Shown here piece by piece: positions 2,740 to 59,445 of a stretch of 64,000 bases of DNA. Source of the DNA: Octopus sinensis (lineage: Eukaryota); assembly GCF_006345805.1 (NCBI RefSeq), contig NC_043016.1:10478001-10542000 (forward strand), in the 5' to 3' direction. Position 1 is the first letter of the stretch. Every line of letters starts with the position of its first letter. The notes under the pieces were generated by a model. The model was not told where the DNA came from, ran no database searches, and saw nothing but the letters and a program-made list of their open reading frames with translations. The position numbers and the translations under genes are program-made.

Positions 2740-3087
2740 TGATGATGAAAGATGGAGTAATGATTGGAGGTACTGGTTATGAATACAAGCAGCTGGAAAC
2801 CAGATTCCTTCAAAGGGTCTTTAAAGTTATGTTACTTGACAGAATGGGTAGTTTGGAGATCAGAGCATCACTCTCTATGTTGAGCTGCTACTTCTCTTCA
2901 TTGAGAGGTCACCAGAGCCAATGAGCAGGAGATTTAGGGGTGAACCAAGAATAAGATGGTTGGATAATATTTATAGTCTCAGCTGATCACACTTGGGAAT
3001 CCAGCTGGAAAGTCTAATGATGATGGCTTCTGATAGAACACTATGGTAGGGTGCCTGAGGACTTTACCACCACAACAATTATGGATG
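2740..3087 (+). pseudogene. Highly decayed RTE-like LINE 3' end, ending in (GGAT)n, into which the LTR element inserted
   Basis: Residual peptide RRFRGEPRIRWLDNIY...ASDRTLW resembles RTE C-termini. Confidence 0.45.
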
Positions 3088-3348
3088 TGTGGTGTGATGG
3101 TGAAGGAGTGTGATGGATGGGGGAGAGCGGAAGTGGGGCTTGCAGGGCTTGCAGGGCGCATGCGCCGGCAGAAGCAGAAGTGACAGACAGAACGCACGTG
3201 CGGCATTGACCAGTTGCGCCAGACACGACGAAGAGATGAGACGAGCAAGTTGGCTAAAAGCAATCCGAGTTCATCTCCGACTAGGTAAGACCCAATTACA
3301 TTCCATTCTTCCTTTTTCTGTTGTACTCTTTTCACCGTTCATACTACA
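3088..3348 (+). repeat. 5' LTR
   Basis: TGTGGTGTGA...TCATACTACA; 9 substitutions versus the 3' LTR. Confidence 0.97.
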
Positions 3349-3360
3349 AGCTATTTCGGC
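3349..3360 (+). promoter_or_regulatory. Atypical primer-binding site AGCTATTTCGGC, complementary to tRNA-Phe nt 1-12
   Basis: Abuts the LTR; its reverse complement GCCGAAATAGCT is the 5' end of metazoan tRNA-Phe(GAA) as recalled; no TGG follows the LTR. Confidence 0.7.
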
Positions 3361-3424
3361 AAATAAATAATCACTGGGACCGGCAAATAATCACTCGGTT
3401 TCGTAAAAATAAAAATAGAAAATT

Positions 3425-4140
3425 ATGCAGAGTGCTCTGGTTTCACGCGAGCCTATAACACCGTTTTGCGGCGACACTGATGTGGTCGCTTGGTTGAAGA
3501 GAGTGAAGTTGGTGGCGAAGCTCCACGGTATAGCTGACCTGGCGAGTTTCATGCCGTTGTATTTGGATGGCCCGGCGTTGGCGTTATATTTAGAGATGGA
3601 GGAGACGGACCAACTCAGCGCAGATAAAGTGGAAATCCAACTTATGGAGGCCTTCACGGAAGGAATGTTTGAAGCGTACGCTCGGCTGGGTAGAATGAGA
3701 TGGACTGGGCAACAGGTGGACGTGTTCGCCAATGAGCTTAGAAGGTGGCTAACTGGCGGGCTTGGGTTATGAGGGAGAGTCGCTAGAACGGACGGTTAGG
3801 TTAGCGTTCGTGACCGGCTTCCCGACATCATGTCGGTCGAGCTACGAAGCTCCCGAACGTGCGTTCGATGCCGATGGCCGATACATATCGCGGGCACGTG
3901 TACTGGTTTCGTGCAGCAGGTTGACATCGGTAGCAGCGACTGTAACGTCGAAAAGTGGCCCAGCTAGGAGCAGCGGAGAGGGGCTGAGGAAAGAACGCGT
4001 GCGATCGTTCAAAGGACAGTGTTTCCGGTGCCAAGGCCCACACATGGTCCGTGACTGCGCGTCGCCCAAGCCTGAGGTGATTTGCTACCGGTTGTCGAGA
4101 GCCAGAGCATGTAGCCAGCGAGTGTCTGTGGGGAAACGGA
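3425..4140 (+). pseudogene. gag: gag (frameshifted) with CCHC zinc knuckle
   Basis: ORFs 3425-3772 and 3762-4181; motif CFRCQGPHMVRDC. Confidence 0.85.
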
Positions 4141-4199
4141 CCGCGGGAGACTACTGCGCCGGTAGTTGTCCTTTGGATTAGTAGCAGCGTGTTTTTCAT

Positions 4200-7040
4200 C
4201 TACCTGTGGTCGACATTCTGGTGAAGGGGAAGATGTCGCGAGCCCTGGTAGGACACGGGCTGTAAACGACCCTGATGACCACAGAAGTGGCAGAGACGTG
4301 GAGTGGAGGAGGAAGCAGTGTTAGGGCAGTTGACGAGAAGAGAGAAGTTCACTGCGAAGGGGTTACGGATGCGCAGATTGTGGTGCAGGGACTACAGCTG
4401 ACGTTGCGAGCAATTGTGGTTGGTCACTTGGTGGACGAGATTGACGTGGTGATGGGGATGGATGCAATCACCCGTTGGGAGGTGTCACCGTCAACGAGGC
4501 TGGCGTAACGTTTGGTTAGCGGGGAATCCGTGTAGGGCGAGACCGTGCACCGACGACAACCGTGAGGAAAAGGATGCGGCGCACACCATTGAAGACCAGG
4601 ATTTTCGGGCTGTTTTTGATGGCAAGAGGTGGACAGTGGAGTGGCACTGGAAGGAGAGCCCCCGATGTTAAAGAAAAAGTGGGCTGCTATCAGCATACTC
4701 TAAAAGGAGATGCCAGAAGTGAGTTCGAGGGGGAGGTGGAGCGTGGATTAAGGAGGGCATACTGATCCCCTCGGAAAAAGAAGAGAGCGGAGTCCTGCCA
4801 CTGATGGCGGTGATACAGCCCACAAAGCGTAAGGTCAGGCCAGTGCTCGACTTCCGAGAGCTGAATGACCACGTGTCGTGTCATACAGGCGGTGAGGCCA
4901 CGGATGTCTGCGGAGACACCTTGCGAGAGTGGAGGCAGACGACGGGGGCTTCCACGATTGTCGATTTAAAGTCGGCATACCTACAGGTGCATGTGGCTGA
5001 GAAACTATGGAAGTACCAGCTCGTCAGGTATAGGGGCCAGACTTACTGTCTGACCAGGTTGGGATTCGGGCTAAATTCAGCGCCGAAGATTATGGCAACA
5101 ATTCTCAAGGCCATCCTGGGGAAGGTGGACAGAGTAAAAAGGGCCACCAATTCATACATCGACGACATTCTGGTGGATGAAACCGTGATACCAGCAACGG
5201 AGGTCATAGGCCACCTGAAGAGTTTTGGACTGATCGCCAAGCCGCCAGAGGCTATGGAGGGAGGTGCTGCACTGGGCCTCAAGCTATGGAGAGACAAGGC
5301 CGGCGCCTTGGTGTTCCAGCGAGGGAATGAGGTCCCTGAACTGGGCGCCAGCATGAGTAGACGGGAACTGTTCTCTGTGTGTGGGAAGCTGGTGGGACAC
5401 TACCCGATTGCAGGCTGGCTCCGGACAGCATGCAGCTTCATCAAGAGACGAGCCGAAGGAGTGAAGTGGAATGATAAAGTGGGGGAGAGGACAATCGACA
5501 TGATGCAGGAAGTCTTGGTCAGAGTAGGAGCAGAGGACCCAGTGAGGGGCAGCTGGTATGTTCCCAAATCAAAGAGCGGGATAGTATGTATGGTGTGACG
5601 CCAGTAGCATCGCAATAGGGTTGTCTTGGAAGTGGGAGGTGTCACGGGGAAGATGCAGCCTGGCTCAGGAAGATGGATGACTGCAATCATATCAACGTGG
5701 CGGAGTTGGATGCCATGCTGAGGGGGTGAACCTAGCCTTGAAGTGGGGGTTGCACACCATAGAAATCAGGACTGATTCGGCCACTGTACTTGGTTGGGCG
5801 ACAGCAGTCATCACCGATGAGCGGAGGGTGCGGACCAAAGGGGCTGCAGAGATGCTGGTAAAGCGTCGATTAGGAATACTGCGTGAACTAACCACTGAGT
5901 TCAATCTGAAGCTGAGCGTGATCTTTGTGCCTTCCGAGAAGAACAGGGCAGACGTCTTGACCAGGGTAAAGCGAGCCTGGTTGCAGGTGCCAGAGGATGC
6001 GAAGCAGGATGTAGCTGCAGTATGCCGTCTGAGCGACTCGGAGTTACGGAGACTGCACACCATGCATCACATGGGTGTGGACAGGACATTGTTCCTGGCC
6101 AGAAAAGTTGACTCCGACGTAACAAGACAGAGCGTGCAGAGAGTGGTTAGCAGTTGTGACAGGTGCCAGTCCATTGACCCTGCTCTGGTCGTGCATGAAG
6201 CGGGAAGTATTCCAGTGGACCAGGACTGGAGACAACTGGCGGTGGACATAACACACTACCGGCAGGGGACATACCTCTCAATGGTTGACTGCGGACCAGG
6301 GCGGTTCGCCATATGGAGGGAGATGAAGTCGGGAACCGCAGAAGAAATTGTGAAAGTGTTGAATGAGATATTCCTGGAACGAGGCCCCGTGGATGAACTG
6401 CTTCTGGACAACGGCACTGCATTTCGCTCGGATGTGCTGAGAGAAATGCTTGATGAGTGGAAGGTCAACCGCTTCTTCAGGGCGGCATAACCGGCCAGTG
6501 AAACGGGTGGTGGAAAGGCATCATCGTACCATCAAGGCCATGGCAGAGAGGGGTCACATTTCACCAGTCGAGGCCGTGTTTTGGTACAATATGTCGCCCA
6601 GATCAGGACAGGCTGAGGAGTCGGTGCCACACAGGGCAATATTCAGGTACGAGTGGAGGCATCCGTGTACTACATCAATGCGACCCGGGGCAGAGGAAGA
6701 GCACGCCTTTGTGCAGGTCGGGGAGGAAGTCTGGGTAAAACCCCCAAATGCACGGTGTACATCGCAATGGGGAAAGGGGACAATAACCTCCGTAAATTCA
6801 AAGAATAACATCTCGGTCGATGGTATGCCACGCCACGTTTTGGACATACGGAGGATTGTTCATGCCCCAGAGGATGGGACAAGCAGCAGCGGGCAAGACG
6901 AAAACAACAGACAGGATGACGAGGTCGGCAGCAACACACCAGGAACAAGTCCTAGGGTTGCACTGCGACCACAGAGGGAGCAGCACCCTCCTCCCTGGTT
7001 GGCTGATTATGAAACCAGTTTCAGGTGCGGGAGCGAGTGA
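4200..7040 (+). pseudogene. pol: pol (protease-RT-RNase H-integrase), frameshifted as assembled
   Basis: ALV/DTGC near 4240-4263; RT DLKSAYLQ, LGFGLNSAP, YIDDIL; RNase H CDASS, TDS, NRADVLTR; integrase HHCC (HTMHH..CDRC) and AVDITH, LLDNG, VERHHRTIK. Confidence 0.92.
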
Positions 7041-7067
7041 GGAAGCCGGTTCAGTGATCTATAGATC

Positions 7068-7076
7068 AGGGGGGCG
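7068..7076 (+). promoter_or_regulatory. Polypurine tract AGGGGGG(CG)
   Basis: Lies immediately upstream of the 3' LTR. Confidence 0.75.
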
Positions 7077-7337
7077 TGTGGTGTGATAGTGAAGGAGTGT
7101 GACGGATGGGGGAGAGCGGAAGTGGGGCTTGCAGGGCTTGCAGGGCGCATGCGCCGGCGGAAGCGGAAGTGACAGACAGAACGCACGTGCGGCATTGACC
7201 AGTTGTGCCAGACACGATGAAGAGACGAGACGAGCGAGTTGGCTAAAAGCGATCCGAGTTCATCTCCGACTAGGTAAGACCCAATTACATTCCATTCTTC
7301 CTTTTTCTGTTGTACTCTTTTCACCGTTCATACTACA
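7077..7337 (+). repeat. 3' LTR
   Basis: Direct repeat of 3088-3348. Confidence 0.97.
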
Positions 7338-7759
7338 GGATGGATGGATATTACATTACTGCCCATAAAATTGGTAAACTGCTTACAGAAAGAGATTTAT
7401 CAAAGATTGCCTGATTGAATCTGTTGTTGTCATAAACCTACAGAGAAATTATTTTTTGCATCTATTCTCTCAAATCTTGCTTCTTCCAACCCATCTAAAC
7501 TGAGCCATCTACAAACAACTGTTCTTGTACAAAACCCAATTTTTCAATTCTTTAACTAAGGGCAATTTACCAATGTGATGAACAAAATGTTAAAAATGTG
7601 AAAAGGTATAGATTACTCATTACTACCAAACTTTTTTAGATTTGTTTCTATCAACACATACACTCATTCAAAAATCCTGGTAGAAACAATGTTACCTTGC
7701 TCTCAAATGTTGTAAGGGGAACATTGACATATCTACAGTGGTGGACAGCTCTTCATGAG

Positions 7760-8168: not shown

Positions 8169-8589
8169 TCTATGTGTGTGTGCGCCCGCGCGTGTGTGTG
8201 CGTGTGCATAGACACGAGATTTGCTCCTGAATTAAATTTATTGGAAATTTTCATTTCCTTCAACACGATATATAAGTGAAGTGACTATATTCAAGGGAGA
8301 TAACAATATAATTCAAACAATTTCAAAACGTTCGAAATTGCCCAACAAAGGGGGTTATCTCCCTTGCAGCCATTTTCTTTCACAATGCATTAATAAAGGT
8401 TTAATGTAACAGCCTAATGAGGGTGGGGGGGTGGAAATGAAGTTATTTCCCTTCACTTTCAAATCCCGACCAGGTACGCTTTGATATTGCAGACAGGTAG
8501 GTTCATACTGCGGAAGAATTGATTTAATCAGCTGCATTTACCTAAAAAAAAAAGAAATAAAAGAAAAAAAAATTGGCACCCCTCTCTCT

Positions 8590-9000
8590 TTTTTTTTACT
8601 CTTTTACTTGTTTCAGTCATTTGACTGCGGCCATGCTGGAGCACCGCCTTTAATCGAGCAACTCGACCCCGGGACTATTCTTTTGTAAGCCTAGTACTTA
8701 TTCTATCGGTCTCTTTTGCCGAACCGCTAAGTAACGGGGAGACGTAACACACCAGCATCGGTTGTCAAGCAATGCTAGGGAGACAAACACAGATACACAA
8801 ACATATACACACACACACACATATATATATACATATATAGACGGCTTCTTTCAGTTTCCGTCTACCAAATCCACTCACAAGGCTTCGGTCGGCCCGAGGC
8901 TATAGCAGAAGACACTTGCCTAAGATGCCACGCAGTGGGACTGAACCCGGAACCATGTGGTTGATTAGCAAGCTACTTACCACACAGCCACTCCTGCGCC
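8590..9000 (-). mobile_element. SINE family A
   Basis: Reverse complement of 1645-2060. Confidence 0.9.
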
Positions 9001-9094
9001 TACTGGAGATCAATATAATTTTAAGTGCAAACAATTTCTCGAGGCTTTTCCACACTTTCTCACTGACGTATGCGTTGAAAACACACACACACCA

Positions 9095-14502: not shown

Positions 14503-17325
14503 TGGTAGTTAGTGACTTTAGGATCAGGACTAGGAGGACAACCAGAAGACGACAAATATGGAGAAGAAGGATCTGGAAGCTTAAAGATCCTGCAAATGGA
14601 CAGAGATTTAGGGACATATATTACTTGAAGCCTCTGACGAAGTAGAAGGGGATAGAGCATCACAGGGGGTAGAAGACAGCTGGACGTTTCTAAGGGACAA
14701 CCTGCTGAGAGCCACTGACCAGATCTGTGGCTGGTGCAAAGTCCCCTCTCGACCTAGAATAACGTGGTGGTGGAACAATATTGTAGACAGGGCTATTAGA
14801 GAAAAGAGACAGGCTTGGAAGGTCTGGAAAAATGGGGGTAGCAGGGAATTGTATCAGACTGCCAAAAGAAAGCTAGGAGACAGGTTTATTTAGCCAGAGG
14901 GGAAGCAGATAAGAAAAAATTTCTGCGCCGTGAGGACCAAAGACGGAGGTGTTTCGTGTTGCAAGACAGTGTGTGAGAGAGAATCGTGATGTGGTAGGAG
15001 AGAAGTGTGTTCGCATGGAAGATGGTTCACTTGCGCTAAATGAGGATGCAAAGAGAGAGGTTTGGAGATGCCACTATGAAAGGTTGCTGAATGAAGAAAA
15101 TGAATGGGATAAAGAGAGTCTGCCGAATGTTGACCCAACAGAGGGACCAGCTATCCGAGTTGATAGTTCCGTGGTAGCTAAGGCAATTAGAAGCATGAAG
15201 ACAGGGAAAGCCCCAGGCCCATCAGGAATCACTGCAGAGATGCTCAAAATGTCTGGTAGTGTCGGCTATAGCCTAGTCACCTATAGTTAATCAGGTGATA
15301 CACAAAGGGGTCATACCCAATGACTGGTGTAGCAGTATAATAGTCAACTGCTACAAAGGTAAAGGTGATGCCCTAGATACAAATAATTACAGAGGTATCA
15401 AGCTGTTGGATCAGGTGATGAAGGTTACGGAGAGGGTCATAGCCCAACTAATTAGAGAGAGAGTTAGTTTAGATGAGATGCAGTTTGGGTTTGTGCCAGG
15501 AAAAGTACTACTGATGCTATATTCCCGGTAAGGCAGCTGCAGGAGAAATACCTAGCCAAAGATAAGCCCCTGTACCTGGCTTTTGTTGACATGGAGAAAG
15601 CCTTCGACAGGGTCCCCCGATCCCTTATCTGGTGGGCAATGAGGAAACTAGGATAGATGAATGGTTAGTGAGAGCTGTGCGGGCCATGTATAGGGACGCT
15701 GCTAGTAGGGTGAGGGTTGGAAATGAGTACAGTGAAGAATTCCGGGTAGAGGTAGGGGTCCACCAAGGCTCAGTACTCAGCCCCCTCCTATTTATCATAG
15801 TCCTCCAGGCAATAACGGAGGAATTCAAGACAGGATGCCCTTGGGAGCTCCTCTATGCTGATGACCTTGCCCTAATTGCTGAGTCGCTATCAGAACTGGA
15901 GGAGAAGTTTCAGGTGTGGAAACAAGGATTAGAATCGAAGGGCCTCAGAGTCAATCTAGCTAAAACCAAAGTCGTAATCAGTAGGAAGGTAGACAAATCA
16001 CAAACACCTTCAGGTAGATGGCCCTGCTCGATCTGTAGAAAAGGTGTAGGTAGAAACTCTATAAGATGCACCAAGTGTAAGCTATGGACACATAAGAGTG
16101 CAGCAATGTCAAAGGAAGGCTAACTAGGAAGATGGTTTTTGTATGTGGCAGATGCTCAGGAACGATAAACACTGAAAATTCTCTGAGACCAACTTCCGTC
16201 ACTTTCCAGGGAGAAAAACTAGAAATAGTTGATAGTTTCCGTTACCTAGGTGACCAAGTCAGCAGCGGGGGCGGGTGTGCTGAAAGTGTAACTGCTAGAG
16301 TAAGAATAGCTTGGGCAAAGTTCAGAGAGCTCTTACCTCTGCTGGTGACAAAAGGCCTCTCGCACAGAGTGAAAGGCAGACTGTGATGCGTGTGTACGAA
16401 CAGCCATGCTACATGGCAGTGAAACATGGGCCGTGACTGCTGAGGATATGCGTAAGCTCGCTAGAAATGAAGCCAGTATGCTCCGATGGATGTGTAATGC
16501 CGGTACTCACACTTGGCAGAGTGTAAGTACCTTGAGAGAAAAGCTGGACCTAAGAAGCATCAGTTGTGGTGTGCAAGAGAGACGTTTGCGCTGGTATGGT
16601 CATGTGGCGAGAATGGATGAAGATAGTTGTGTGAAAAAGTGCCACACCCTAGCGGTTGAGGGAACCTGTGGAAGAGGCAGACCCAGGAAAACCTGGGACG
16701 AGGTGGTGAAGCACGACCTTCGAACTTTAGGTCTCACTGAGGAAATGACTAGAGACCGAGACCTCTGGAAGTGTGCTGTGCGCGAGAAGACCCGGCAGGA
16801 CAAGTGAGTCCATAACCCGTGGCCTTCTACATGGGATGGAGCCAGCCTACGTATGCATACCTTCCCTTCTTGGGACACAAAACTCTACTTGTGAAGACGT
16901 GTTGAGGCAAGTGAGGATCAGAATCGAAATCGATCAATGGAAATCGATCAATGGAAATTGCAGATGTATTACCAGTGCCGGTGGCATGTAAGAGAACTTT
17001 CCGTTTCGCGACCGTTGCCAGCACCGCCCCGTTTCATGTCCGTTGCCAGCCTCGCCTGGCCCTTGTGCCGGTGGCACATAAAAAGCACCATCCGTTCGTG
17101 GCCGTTTGCCAGCTCTGTCTGGCACCAGTGCGGGTGGCACGTAAAAAGCATCCACTACACTCACGGAGTGGTTGGCGTTAGGAAGGGCATCCAGCCGTAG
17201 AAACACTGCCAGATTTGACTGGGCCTGATGAAGCCTTCTGGCTTCACAGACCCCAGTAGAACCGTCCAACCCATGCTAGCATGGAAAACGGACGCTAAAC
17301 GATGATGATGATGATGATGATGATG
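14503..17325 (+). mobile_element. RTE-clade LINE, 5'-truncated, frameshifted RT with internal PHD-like finger, long 3' UTR and (GAT)n tail
   Basis: KAPGPSGI, NYRGIKLL, QFGFVPG, FVDMEKAFDRVP, GVHQGSVLSPLLF, LLYADDLAL, FRYLG, GSETW, RLRWYGHV, GRPRKTW. Confidence 0.95.
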
Positions 17326-20744: not shown

Positions 20745-21222
20745 ATTGTGTACAGTGCTCAGGTGCACTACAACTCATCTAAAGTGTATATATAATCAGG
20801 TGTAGCTTCGACGGATTTCGGGAAGCATGAGGGCCTTAAAGGATGCAGTGTCATGGCAGTCAACAACTGATGCAGGCAGTTTATTCCACGCTTCAGCAAC
20901 CCTGAGCGTGAAAAATGTTTCCGAAAGTCATGGGAGCTGTGCTGTTTTCTGACTTTGTAGGCATGTCCACGTGTGTTAGACACATGGAGATCAAAAATGT
21001 GTTCAGTGTTGTTGTTGGTGAGGTGGTTGATAACCTTGTGGGTGTTTACCAAGTCCGTCGCTAGACGCCGGAGCTTCAGTGAATCCATGCCCAGGGAAAC
21101 AAGGTGCTCAGAATATGGTAGGTGTCTGATGGAGGGTATGCGTTTGGTTGCACGTCTCTGGACAGATTCCAGGAGGTCAATGTTCTGAGCAAGATAGGGA
21201 TTCCAAACTGATGATGCGAATT
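20745..21222 (-). pseudogene. CR1-clade LINE 3' fragment with (ATT)n tail
   Basis: EFASSVWNPYLAQNIDLLESVQRRATK, LRRLATDL, TRGHAYK. Confidence 0.9.
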
Positions 21223-21489
21223 CCAAGTGAGATCAACTTTGCCTTTCGTCCCTTCAGGGGTCAATAAATTAAGTACCAGTTGCATACTAGGATTAATCTA
21301 ATCGTCTGGCCACCTCCCCACAAAATTTCGTGCCTTGTGCCTAGAGTAGAAAAGAACACAGGATTGAACATATTAAAAACGTAACCCCTTTATTAATACC
21401 ACACACTTAACATCCATGTGTTGCTTAGATGTCAGAAGCTGTAGTTTCTCATTAGGGGAAATATCCTTTTTAAAGACATATAACATTAC

Positions 21490-46335: not shown

Positions 46336-47670
46336 CCTTTTCACAGCTTCTAATGCTGGAGATGTACTACCTTTGAACTAAGTTAACACCTCTTATTTTT
46401 TGAGCACCTTCCGGAGTATTCGAGTGGTTCCAAGCAGTGCTGTTTTCTGCAAGTGCTCCACCCTTCTTGCAGCCCCTATTTGTTCCACGTACTTCTCAAG
46501 ATGTTTGCTCACTGTTTCTGGGGCTCTGACAATTATTGGTACTACAGCTACCTTTTTCATCGACCACAACTGCTTAACTTCCCAAGCTAACCTGTCATAT
46601 CTATCGACTTTTCTTTCTTCCTTATCTCATACCTTGTTATCAGCTGGGTATGCTATGTCTATGATCCAGCATTGTTTTCTTTCTCAATTAAGACCATGTC
46701 CGGCTTCCTATTCTCTGTCTCATACTCTCTTTACTCTTTTACTTGTTTCAGTCATTTGACTGTGGCCATGCTGGAGCACCACCTTTAGTCGAAGAAATCG
46801 ACCCCAGGACTTATTCTTTGTAAGCCTAGTACTTATTCTATCGGTCACTTTTGCCGAACTGCTAAGTTACGGGGACATAAACAAAATCTCATAGGATCTT
46901 TGCATTTCTATTTTTGACGATGTCTTCAGGTTTGTGTTCATACCAAATTTTTGCTCTGTCAAGTCCTTACTTGTTGCAAAGTGTCCAATGTACAAGCCTG
47001 GCTGTATTGTCGTGGCATCTCTTATATTCCTTCTGGGCTAATGGTGTACATTGGCTGGTAATATACCATACGGTTTCACTGTTTTGTCCACAGATTCTGC
47101 ACTTATCACTTTCTGCTCTGTTGTCTACTCTGTATTTTATGTAGTTTGTTCTTAGTGCTTGCTCTTGGGCAGCACAGATTAGAGCCTCCGTTTCTGGTTT
47201 TAAATCACTTTTAGTCATCCACAGCCATCTTTTTTCTCTGCCTGTCTTATCTTCAACATCCCTATGAAATTGACCATGCATTCTTTTCATTACCCACCTG
47301 TATCTAGTTTCGTTCATTTTCAATTGCCTGTACTGTGCTTTATCTTCGTAATCTTTCATCCTACACAAGCCTGACCTTCCTACTTCTAATAATAACAGTT
47401 CTGTGGCATTTTTTTTACATACCATACTATGCTGTTTTCTTCTGATCTAATGCTGTGTTCGCATCCAATAAGTCCTCTTCTGCCTCTTTTTCTTGGTACA
47501 TACATTCTGTCTGTGTCACTTTTTGGGTGGAGTGACCCATATCTAGTTAGCAACTTCCTCATCTTTCTGTCTAAGCTGTTTAGTTTGGCTACTGTCCAAT
47601 TGGTTACCTCTGCTCCATATCTAAGGAGTGAAACCACCCAGGTGTTGATAGCTTCAATCTTATCCTGTCC
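46335..47670 (-). pseudogene. R4/Dong-like RLE non-LTR retrotransposon, 5'-truncated, with a SINE A fragment at 46722-46883
   Basis: MYVPRKRGRRGL, MHGQF, LKPETEALICAAQEQAL, CRICGQNSETVWYITSQC, RCHD; 3' end abuts (TAA)n. Confidence 0.88.
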
Positions 47671-48854
47671 AAATGGATCAGTCTCAGTCTGTGCAAGTAT
47701 TCCAACCATTACACTATATACCCACGGGCATACAGAACAACTTCTGGTCCAGACATGGTGTTTTAGAGAAACCTGGACAAAAGGGAGGTTTATTAACTAG
47801 TAGCAATGAAGTGCTTGATGATGTCCGTTCTATCATTCTTGGATTTCTTGAATACCACCTTTCTATGCAGAGACAGCAGCAAAATGATTACCAAGAATTG
47901 TTGGAGTTAACAATGATCTTTCTTGACAGCATTCTGAAGAATGGAGTATCGTTCCTTACATCAGGAGCTGTAAGTCTTGCAAGGTGGGTGTCAAAAGCAA
48001 TTTACACATTTAAGATATACCTGTTTCAAGATCAATTTCCCTTATCTCCTGGGGAGAAGAACTCTTTAAGAAGAATATGTATTTTTCTTGCTCAAGTGTA
48101 TGTTGTAGTCTGGTTTCTGTCATCAGAAGCAATTAAAGTACCTTATCGTGATTTCCTATTCATGTGTCAACTGATAAATTATCAGGATATTGATCCAGAA
48201 ATCAGTAAGGCTGCTGCAAAAAAATTTTCTATTTCTGGTACTTAGCTCCTGAAACTGTGGCTCTGTCCATATTTGATGACAATGTTCCAACAGAGGTGAA
48301 GGCAAACATGGCTCAAGTTATGCAGGAAGCAGACAAAGGTGAAGATGAGGAGGAAGAAAAAAATCAACTGAAGAGGTACATTCTGCACCAAAATGACTTT
48401 TCTTCCTTTACAAACAATGAGTTTTCATCTTTTGTAACGCCTGGTACAAAATCTTTCTTCGCAAGATTTTCTATTCAGCACCGATTTCTTCGACAAAGAC
48501 CCTTCAAAAATGGAAGAATGATCCTTCTTATAAAAGTGGACTTGAAAAACCTGAGAAGACAGTTGTTGTGATTGATGTTGCAGAAGGAGGTGTCAAACTC
48601 ATTCAGGATTACAATAACATTCTCACAAAAGTTGAAACTGAGAAATGATTTGTTTTACAGATCGTTACAAAAACCGTAAAACATACCCAACTGCCATTAA
48701 ATCTTCTCTTATGCAAAAATAATGTTCAATATTTAGTCTTCATTTTATGTTTTTGTTTCTATAGAAATTGTTGTTGTAAATAAAAATGCGTTTCTCTTAT
48801 AGAAGTTGAGTGCTTTATTATGAAAACTTAATACTTCTTAATTTTTTTTATCTT

Positions 48855-58039: not shown

Positions 58040-58436
58040 CATGCCAATCTTTAACTGTGGAGGGAACCTGTGGTAGAGGTAGACCCAAGAAGACATGAGA
58101 CGAGGTGGTAAAGTATGATCTTTGAACTTTGAACCTCACAGACTAGTGACTGAGACCTTTGACAATGTACTCTGTTTAAGAGGACCCATCAAGGCAAGTA
58201 CACCAGTGTTGGTGGCAGGTAAGAAAATCAACCTTTGAATGTTGGGACTCATGAAGGCAAAGTGGCTGAGTTCCTTTGGAGCATTGGGCCTCACAGAGGC
58301 ACAGTGGCTTAGTTCCTTTCAAGCGTTGGCCTCACGGAGGTAATGATCAAGACCTTTGGCATCATGCTGTGCTTGAGAAGAAAACCCATCAAACCAAGCA
58401 AAATCACAGTCATGGCAGATGCCAGTGTCACGCAAA
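58040..58436 (+). mobile_element. RTE subfamily 2 fragment
   Basis: TVEGTCGRGRPKKT; matches 12480-13000. Confidence 0.8.
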
Positions 58437-59445
58437 CTTACACAATAACTCTTACTTCCCATACCATAAACCATTGACCAATCTTAAGTATATTAGCAAA
58501 TTTAGTAATCATTCTAGGGCAATTACTAGGAACTTAGTTAAGAATATTTCATTTAGATTGTTTAAGTTATCTGTTAATGTTGACATTTTCAATGATAATG
58601 CCAAATTTTATAACTCTGCCTTACTTAAAGCAGGTTATACAGAGAAAATTATCTACATTAATTCTATTCAGTCTAAGTCTAATTTTACTAATGTAGATAT
58701 GAAATCTAGTTGTAAAGGAATTAATGATATCAATTTTAATTTATACACCAAAACCAAACAGAGGAAGGGAGATAACCCTTATTTAATCCCCTATTTTCAT
58801 TCTAAAGGAAAATCTATGTCTTTCAAAAATAAGATAACTAATAGTATTACCATTTGGTTAATTATTCCATATAGGAGGCAAATTAAATCTAATCTCCCAT
58901 TGCAGTTTCGTGAAGCTATTATTAGGAATTTTCCAAGATTTCTAAGTATTACTCTATTATCAACTCACATATGGTTAGTATTGGTTTTTCCAACGCAAAA
59001 AATCTCTTACAAATTATCTCTTCACATAATAACAACCTGTTAAATATTAATACATTTAATAATACTAATATTAATTTAGCTAATACCATCCATCCCTCTA
59101 GAAATATTAATAACAAGGTTATTGTATCTGAAGTCAATTCCAACAGAATTAAGTTTATGTCAAGTAACTCTAAAATTAAAAATTCTATATACCAGTGTAA
59201 AATTACTACTCATAATCAAGCATCTTTTTTATATTGGAAGCACGTCTTTACAGTTATCTAATAGGATTTCTAATCACTACTCGACATTTAGGGATAGGAA
59301 TAAATGTAACAATACAAGGCTCAGTAAATTAATTGGAATCTAAAAGACTGCAATAAACAGTTTAACTTAGATTGGTTGATTCTCTCAATCTTGATACCTT
59401 ATGACAAAGGCAAGGAATTCTGTCTTCTCTGTAATTCTGAACTAA
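58437..59445 (+). pseudogene. Penelope-like element fragment: RT thumb and GIY-YIG endonuclease
   Basis: YHKP..KYISKFSNHS..ISFRLFKLS..YNSALLKAGY; SIYQCKI..YIGSTS..RISNH..TRLSKLI(W)NLK..W..CLLCNSE. Confidence 0.85.

Follow-up and report, generated by a model that had tools for sequence, protein, structure and literature searches.

A conserved site complementary to the first 12 bases of tRNA-Phe behind the 5′ LTR of an animal retrotransposon lineage

According to the excerpts consulted of two papers, LTR elements use three primer types, namely the 3′ end of a tRNA, half of a tRNA, or the element's own RNA (PMC6317226), and the primer sites reported correspond to tRNA 3′ ends or anticodon loops (PMC10886601). 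In canonical priming, used by retroviruses and most Gypsy and BEL elements, the 3′ end of a host tRNA is placed on a site that adjoins the 5′ LTR. The IAP element uses tRNA-Phe in this canonical manner. In half-tRNA priming (Drosophila copia, Ty5, Osser, Bryco, Bianca, and fungal Copia/Helenus), the primer is the 5′ piece of a cut tRNA, about half its length, and the site pairs with the anticodon arm; this mode is reported only for Copia lineages in the excerpted text of PMC6317226 and PMC10886601. In the Tf1/sushi group (S. pombe Tf1 and Tf2, Tj1, as well as the lineages of Tcn1 and TAR), the extreme 5′ 11-12 nt of the RNA pair flush and are released as primer through cleavage where the duplex ends, as described in parts of PMC7175516 and PMC4600332, with the Tf1 RNase H cutting the RNA duplex between bases 11 and 12 (PMC7175516, in excerpt).

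The Octopus sinensis element examined here resembles each of these systems in part. As in canonical priming, its site adjoins the 5′ LTR and is matched to a host tRNA; however, it has no TGG and faces the opposite end of that tRNA, whereas four other LTR families of the same host do have TGG. As in half-tRNA priming, a cut tRNA would supply its 5′ piece as primer, but the pairing covers nt 1-12 rather than the anticodon arm and, unlike in the Copia elements, reverse transcriptase (RT) precedes integrase. As in Tf1/sushi, the 11-12 nt at the extreme 5′ end of an RNA are predicted to pair flush and act as primer; in contrast, the complement is found in host tRNA-Phe and not in the LTR, and neither RT nor RNase H makes the element a chromovirus-like Gypsy. 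A site for tRNA nt 1-12 was not reported in any of the literature searched, and the earlier note likewise knew of no description of this priming mode; Repbase Reports, GyDB and subscription journals lay outside the search, and an earlier mention there is possible. No site for a tRNA 5′ end is named in the excerpts of PMC12859917, PMC6238403, PMC8556966, PMC13537249, PMC4600332, PMC13524379 and PMC3286476. Standard annotation pipelines seek only tRNA 3′ ends, for example the last 12 nt (PMC13524379, in excerpt); a 5′-end site therefore escapes them, which leaves the lineage under-annotated.

The element and the site behind its 5′ LTR

The window (the whole stretch of 64,000 nt that was analysed) carries one copy of an LTR retrotransposon, complete in extent and broken in its coding region. 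The element is an LTR retrotransposon by its paired TG...CA LTRs, target duplication, polypurine tract and gag-PR-RT-RH-IN coding order, with the following features:

3083..3087, plus strand: left target-site duplication GGATG
3088..3348, plus strand: 5′ LTR, 261 nt, with TG...CA ends
3349..3360, plus strand: predicted primer-binding site AGCTATTTCGGC, the exact complement of tRNA-Phe(GAA) nt 1-12, with no spacer after the LTR
3425..4529, plus strand: gag (with zinc-knuckle region) and protease, in pieces, by tblastn against relative P0093, with domain names taken from relatives
4588..5679, plus strand: RT, DUF7047 thumb region and start of RNase H, by Pfam and tblastn
5649..7010, plus strand: remaining RNase H (RVT_3-like) and integrase (H2C2 and rve), in three frame pieces in this copy
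7064..7076, plus strand: polypurine tract GATCAGGGGGGCG, preceding the 3′ LTR
7077..7337, plus strand: 3′ LTR, 252/261 identical to the 5′ LTR
7338..7342, plus strand: right target-site duplication GGATG, matching the left 5-bp copy

The first gag ATG of this copy lies at 3425, the tblastn pieces with P0093 span 3455-3745 and 3777-4529, and the RT motif YIDD is encoded at 5155-5166. The two LTRs differ at nine positions over 261 nt, every one a transition. The purine run stops two bases short of the 3′ LTR, and the GATCA-purine-run form of the tract was found in nine of ten relatives inspected. Behind the site, the leader holds a short tandem duplication (3358-3392) that is present in only part of the family (L001-L006 and L020). 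Six small-contig copies (L011, L012, L015, L016, L018 and L019) lie about 1.2-1.4 kb downstream of another family LTR and are followed by the same flank, an arrangement which suggests a repeated block.

The 12-mer AGCTATTTCGGC, which occurs only once in the window, directly abuts the LTR-terminal CA with a gap of 0. To compare it with the host tRNA, the 15-nt start of tRNA-Phe was sought in the host genome (2.72 Gb) and found at 129 exact matches, with none for the control; at 18 of the first 20 of these loci, ARAGORN called a tRNA-Phe(GAA) gene that begins at the matched base. The site pairs with nt 1-12 of this tRNA at 12/12 positions, and the duplex ends at the LTR edge, with tRNA nt 13-15 (CAG) unable to pair with the LTR-terminal ACA. 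On the tRNA, the pairing ends 1 nt short of the end of the D stem and not at the loop. The base 3′ of the site is variable (A 20, C 10, T 4 and G 2 in 36 contexts from relatives). No other stretch of at least 8 nt on the element plus strand was complementary to the rest of tRNA-Phe, anticodon arm included. The earlier note had described a TGG-less 12-mer flush with the 5′ LTR, had given the 5′ end of metazoan tRNA-Phe(GAA) and had placed the match from tRNA nt 1 to the LTR edge; all three statements were borne out by the window and by the host genes. The host genome also contains a tandem array of the tRNA-Phe start with a period of about 200 bp and dozens of units (G000:C15:43562502-43577294). 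In addition, seven identical genes on small unplaced host contigs (L180-L186) form a second family of tRNA-Phe(GAA) whose acceptor stem differs, possibly the DNA of another organism, and a primer site matching this family had 0 matches in the host genome.

Conservation of the site in the host and in distant relatives

The LTR-terminal ACA followed by the 12-mer was detected at 271 places in the host genome, compared with one for the reversed control. The gag of this lineage lay downstream in 29 of the first 30 of these 271, and the LTR ends in front of the site were many and different. Among copies collected by DNA similarity, 29/30 had the exact site and one had a CpG-type change; this set is the best 30 of 40 scored, includes the window copy and was retrieved with a query that contained the site. 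A less biased set of 20 copies was hand-picked from the lower part of the RT match list (70-87% identity), of which 16 showed the junction (11 exact, four with one transition and one with two) and four were without the 5′ part. A TGG site was seen at none of these junctions (0/30 and 0/16), and the check proposed earlier for a canonical TGG in other copies returned the same 12-nt site instead. As a control, four other LTR families of the host were inspected, and an ordinary TGG site lay 0-2 nt behind the LTR in all 16 copies printed; a further locus, L267, had no LTR pair.

A scan of metagenome contigs was used to examine relatives outside the host. Loci were scored for gag first, after which the site was sought upstream. 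Of 77 loci, 27 were without gag, nine did not reach the gag start and 41 covered it. The pattern AGCTAT-nnn-GGC (at most one mismatch) was found directly behind CA in 38 of these 41, and the remaining three are damaged: in one the word is exact but the LTR end in front of it is altered, and the other two have about two changes each. None of the 41 had a TGG site, and on the opposite strand the motif had 0 occurrences in 277,116 nt. The 38 motif loci include near-duplicates, with 36 distinct contexts among 41 motif loci. In the RT-RNase H region the relatives are about 45-61% identical to a close relative, and the site lies 1-264 nt upstream of their estimated gag start. The conservation of the 12-mer, which the earlier note had wished to see examined, thus extends to distant relatives. 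Two further readings were rejected on these data: a chance match is ruled out by the 271-to-1 count, the host copies and the 38/41 relatives, and a deleted canonical site by the lack of TGG in host copies and relatives alike.

The columns that face tRNA nt 1-3 and 7-12 are nearly fixed and variation is confined to those facing nt 4-6; because the fixed columns of this table were partly set by the search itself, the gag-first count of 41 loci is the fairer measure. Flanking positions carry less than 0.7 bit, the ACA of the LTR excepted, and the U5 bases upstream of ACA are unconserved. The middle triplet, which faces tRNA nt 6-4, was TTC in 14 loci, CGC in 11, CTA in six, CCC in three and CAC in three, plus one TTC with a mismatch elsewhere. 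These five words are scattered over a quick 37-row tree of the RT-RNase H region, with CGC inside a TTC clade and CAC and CGC interleaved, and word switches occur within supported clades.

For one of the four non-host words a real tRNA-Phe gene was matched. The CTA word is exactly complementary to nt 1-12 of one eukaryote-type tRNA-Phe(GAA) gene (L218), which is among 11 matches in viral contigs and may come from hosts other than those of the CTA elements. This match includes the G that faces the G-U wobble of the acceptor stem, and the site therefore tracks the 5′ strand of the tRNA and not its 3′ strand. One CTA element (L140) was present in 22 runs, 21 of them labelled annelid metagenome. 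The fixed parts of the site (facing GCC and AUAGCU) are common to other tRNAs, and the variant words pair at 10/12 positions with tRNA-Lys and tRNA-Thr of the host, equal to host tRNA-Phe, in a comparison of 33 distinct host tRNA genes from six amino acids only. Moreover, the site of L314 is a sixth word, one base off the start of host tRNA-Lys(UUU). These observations imply that the isotype may not always be Phe. L314 itself belongs to the lineage and lies on a contig assigned to a bacterial metagenome-assembled genome, likely an animal contamination. The viral contigs searched yielded no relatives of the lineage, and a loose motif scan of the same contigs gave 80 fetched loci, none with the lineage gag.

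Candidate priming mechanism and competing readings

The site is real, is kept across a deep lineage and is unexplained by a known priming mode; in kind, the priming would be a form of cut-tRNA priming. With the position of the site, its exact complementarity, its conservation across the lineage and the lack of both a TGG site and a self-primer directly observed, we consider it probable that the minus strand is primed by a 5′ tRNA fragment, whatever the cutter. Our preferred reading, at a probability of about 0.55, is that the site binds a 10-12-nt 5′ piece of tRNA-Phe as the minus-strand primer and that this piece is cut on the template by the RNase H of the element. The conservation and the pattern of variation support the tRNA 5′-end primer that the earlier note had proposed, while the cleavage step and the cutter stay inferences. 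The nucleocapsid would open the acceptor and D stems and anneal tRNA nt 1-12 to the genome RNA in a 12-bp duplex predicted at -18.7 kcal/mol. Since RT requires a paired 3′-OH at the LTR edge, pairing through nt 1-12 would oblige the tRNA to be cut at or near nt 12; the cut may fall where the duplex ends, after U12, leaving a 3′-OH, or alternatively after G10 if integrase later trims two bases. The two bases between the purine run and the 3′ LTR make such a 10-nt primer with two trimmed bases possible. The geometry of the cut would be that of Tf1, but acting in trans on a host tRNA, and from this likeness cleavage by the element RNase H is the simplest reading. Plus-strand synthesis would then continue over the primer as far as its physical 5′ end, and this would account for both the sharp end of the site at tRNA nt 1 and the changes of whole words among hosts. 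Retroviruses recopy their primer, and Ty1 and Ty3 are said in the excerpted part of PMC7472051 to inherit their site instead, so that recopying is not general.

The main rival, possible though unlikely, is that the same primer is made by a host nuclease, either as a 5′ tRNA fragment cut in the D loop and trimmed to the duplex or by a tRNA-processing enzyme, for example RNase Z, that cuts the 12-bp duplex. All of the sequence evidence is equally compatible with this origin, 5′ tRNA fragments occur in animals (PMC7472051, in excerpt), and the Copia-type half-tRNA primers show that a cut tRNA can prime (PMC6317226, in excerpt). However, the pairing stops 1 nt before the end of the D stem rather than at the loop. 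Moreover, the shortest common 5′ tRNA fragments measure 14-16 nt, and a 3′ phosphate is left by many of the nucleases that cut tRNA; extra trimming would thus be needed.

An improbable reading holds that an intact tRNA is only held in place on the site through its 5′ strand and that synthesis starts from another 3′-OH, that of a freed CCA end or of a protein. Pairing of nt 1-7 would indeed free the 3′ strand of the tRNA, and the bipartite primer sites known in Ty3 offer a precedent. Against an anchor stand the lack of the second complementary stretch noted above, an LTR that terminates in ACA without TGG, a U5 that is unconserved upstream of this ACA, and a duplex end that coincides exactly with the point at which minus-strand synthesis must begin. 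Slightly less probable again is that the 12-mer serves as another cis element, such as an integrase attachment, packaging or translation signal, and that its likeness to a tRNA is historical or accidental. Its placement beside the attachment end and 1-264 nt upstream of the estimated gag start would suit such a signal; yet it occupies the primer position, where there is no other candidate and where the four control families of the host have an ordinary TGG in the 16/16 copies printed, and its variation sits on the variable positions of the acceptor stem, one variant being the start of another tRNA-Phe.

Self-priming of the Tf1 type from the 5′ end of the element's own RNA is largely refuted and very improbable. 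The length class is the same (11-12 nt) and TGG is likewise lacking, but the best complement in the LTR reached only 7/12, as the earlier note had anticipated in stating that the complement of the site is absent there. In the 36 contexts from relatives, the best upstream match (G-U allowed) was 6-11/12, scattered and independent of the variant words, and the site is fixed while the LTRs are unrelated between families. Two other candidates were tried and rejected: (i) a sense copy of the tRNA 3′ strand, in that the site plus the next base resembles nt 66-73, was dismissed because the CTA variant follows the 5′ strand at the wobble and the next base is unconserved; and (ii) extra pairing between the tRNA D loop and U5, hinted at by a co-fold in the family of the window, is absent as a conserved feature in relatives.

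A conserved site for the first 12 tRNA bases would be a fourth primer type and suggests a route from tRNA priming to self-priming, or the reverse; if the reading is true, the lineage bridges tRNA priming and Tf1 self-priming, and its elements escape silencing by 3′ tRNA fragments and are exposed to 5′ fragments instead. The fuller scheme, in which an unnamed old animal LTR lineage uses this fourth type, cuts host tRNA-Phe on the template with its RNase H after nt 10-12 and carries a copy of the entire primer into every new site, such that the site tracks the host tRNA, is offered tentatively, at somewhat under even odds.

Classification of the lineage

The polyprotein comprises gag, protease, RT (YIDD), DUF7047, an RVT_3-like RNase H and an H2C2-rve integrase. 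The domain order PR-RT-RH-IN fits Ty3/Gypsy (Metaviridae), as the earlier note had labelled the element, and is common to BEL, Troyka and retroviruses. That label did not hold up well, and membership in Gypsy is doubtful from the protein comparisons. The Gypsy-type RT_RNaseH families of Pfam matched 0/3 window pieces and 0/7 relatives, the RT thumb gave a better alignment to BEL/Pao than to the two sampled Gypsy lineages of the host, and RNase H by hhalign favored BEL (E 2e-6) over host Gypsy (E 0.014 and 0.026), leaving only the integrase Gypsy-like (E 6e-23 for a Mag-type host family and 2e-18, vs 1e-15 for BEL), with the caution that the reference profiles differ in depth and the Gypsy profiles are shallow. 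The RT core is about equally distant from the BEL and Gypsy profiles. A quick unrooted RT tree of 32 rows sampled only two Gypsy lineages and lacked rows for DIRS, retroviruses and Troyka; on it the lineage stands on a long branch of its own, and the six host Gypsy rows form a separate group (97).

Among the references compared, the RT thumb and RNase H thus align best with BEL/Pao (Belpaoviridae); unlike BEL/Pao, however, the polyprotein is far shorter, the integrase is nearer to Gypsy and RT stands on a separate branch and not inside BEL. Matches to the BEL/Pao domains Peptidase_A17, DUF1759 and DUF5641 were sought and none was found. The Troyka elements (Kuafuorterviruses) are likewise an animal LTR lineage outside standard Gypsy with the order PR-RT-RH-IN, but in the excerpts of PMC11673190 and PMC12440569 they have a 3-bp target duplication, CG...CG ends and IADD, VADD or LADD, whereas the element here has 5 bp, TG...CA and YIDD; membership is ruled out by these traits against the published descriptions. 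In two young host families of Gypsy type (L252 and L257), SQDD or IADD replaces YxDD; although IADD counts among the described Kuafu traits, the L257 element is bounded by TG...CA and carries a TGG site.

Named relatives come from molluscs and crustaceans, the closest named protein match being from Argonauta, and the MolGy clades of PMC6238403 and PMC8556966, whose excerpts say nothing on primers, could include this lineage. A PDB sequence search returned weak RT matches and retroviral integrases only, and an Atlas search returned unnamed clusters with weak RT/RNase H leads. No paper naming DUF7047 was found in the literature searched, which excluded Repbase Reports, GyDB and subscription journals. 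A sister lineage (P0217, P0227, P0229 and P0240) has the same RT-DUF7047-RNase H block and a longer integrase, with one protein from the calcareous sponge Sycon.

Other repeats were also encountered. Six host loci (L274-L279) carry Crypton-like tyrosine recombinase genes, with no RT in the 3-kb loci read. Within the window, a remnant of a non-LTR-type reverse transcriptase lies at 15590-16120 (RVT_1, E 9e-16), and decayed element pieces with no Pfam match lie at 20768-21232, 46967-47446, 47652-48245 and 58270-59043. Interspersed SINE-like repeats of 180-250 nt (8584-9024 and its copies; families D13, D14, D16 and D19) are present at five to nine window copies each.
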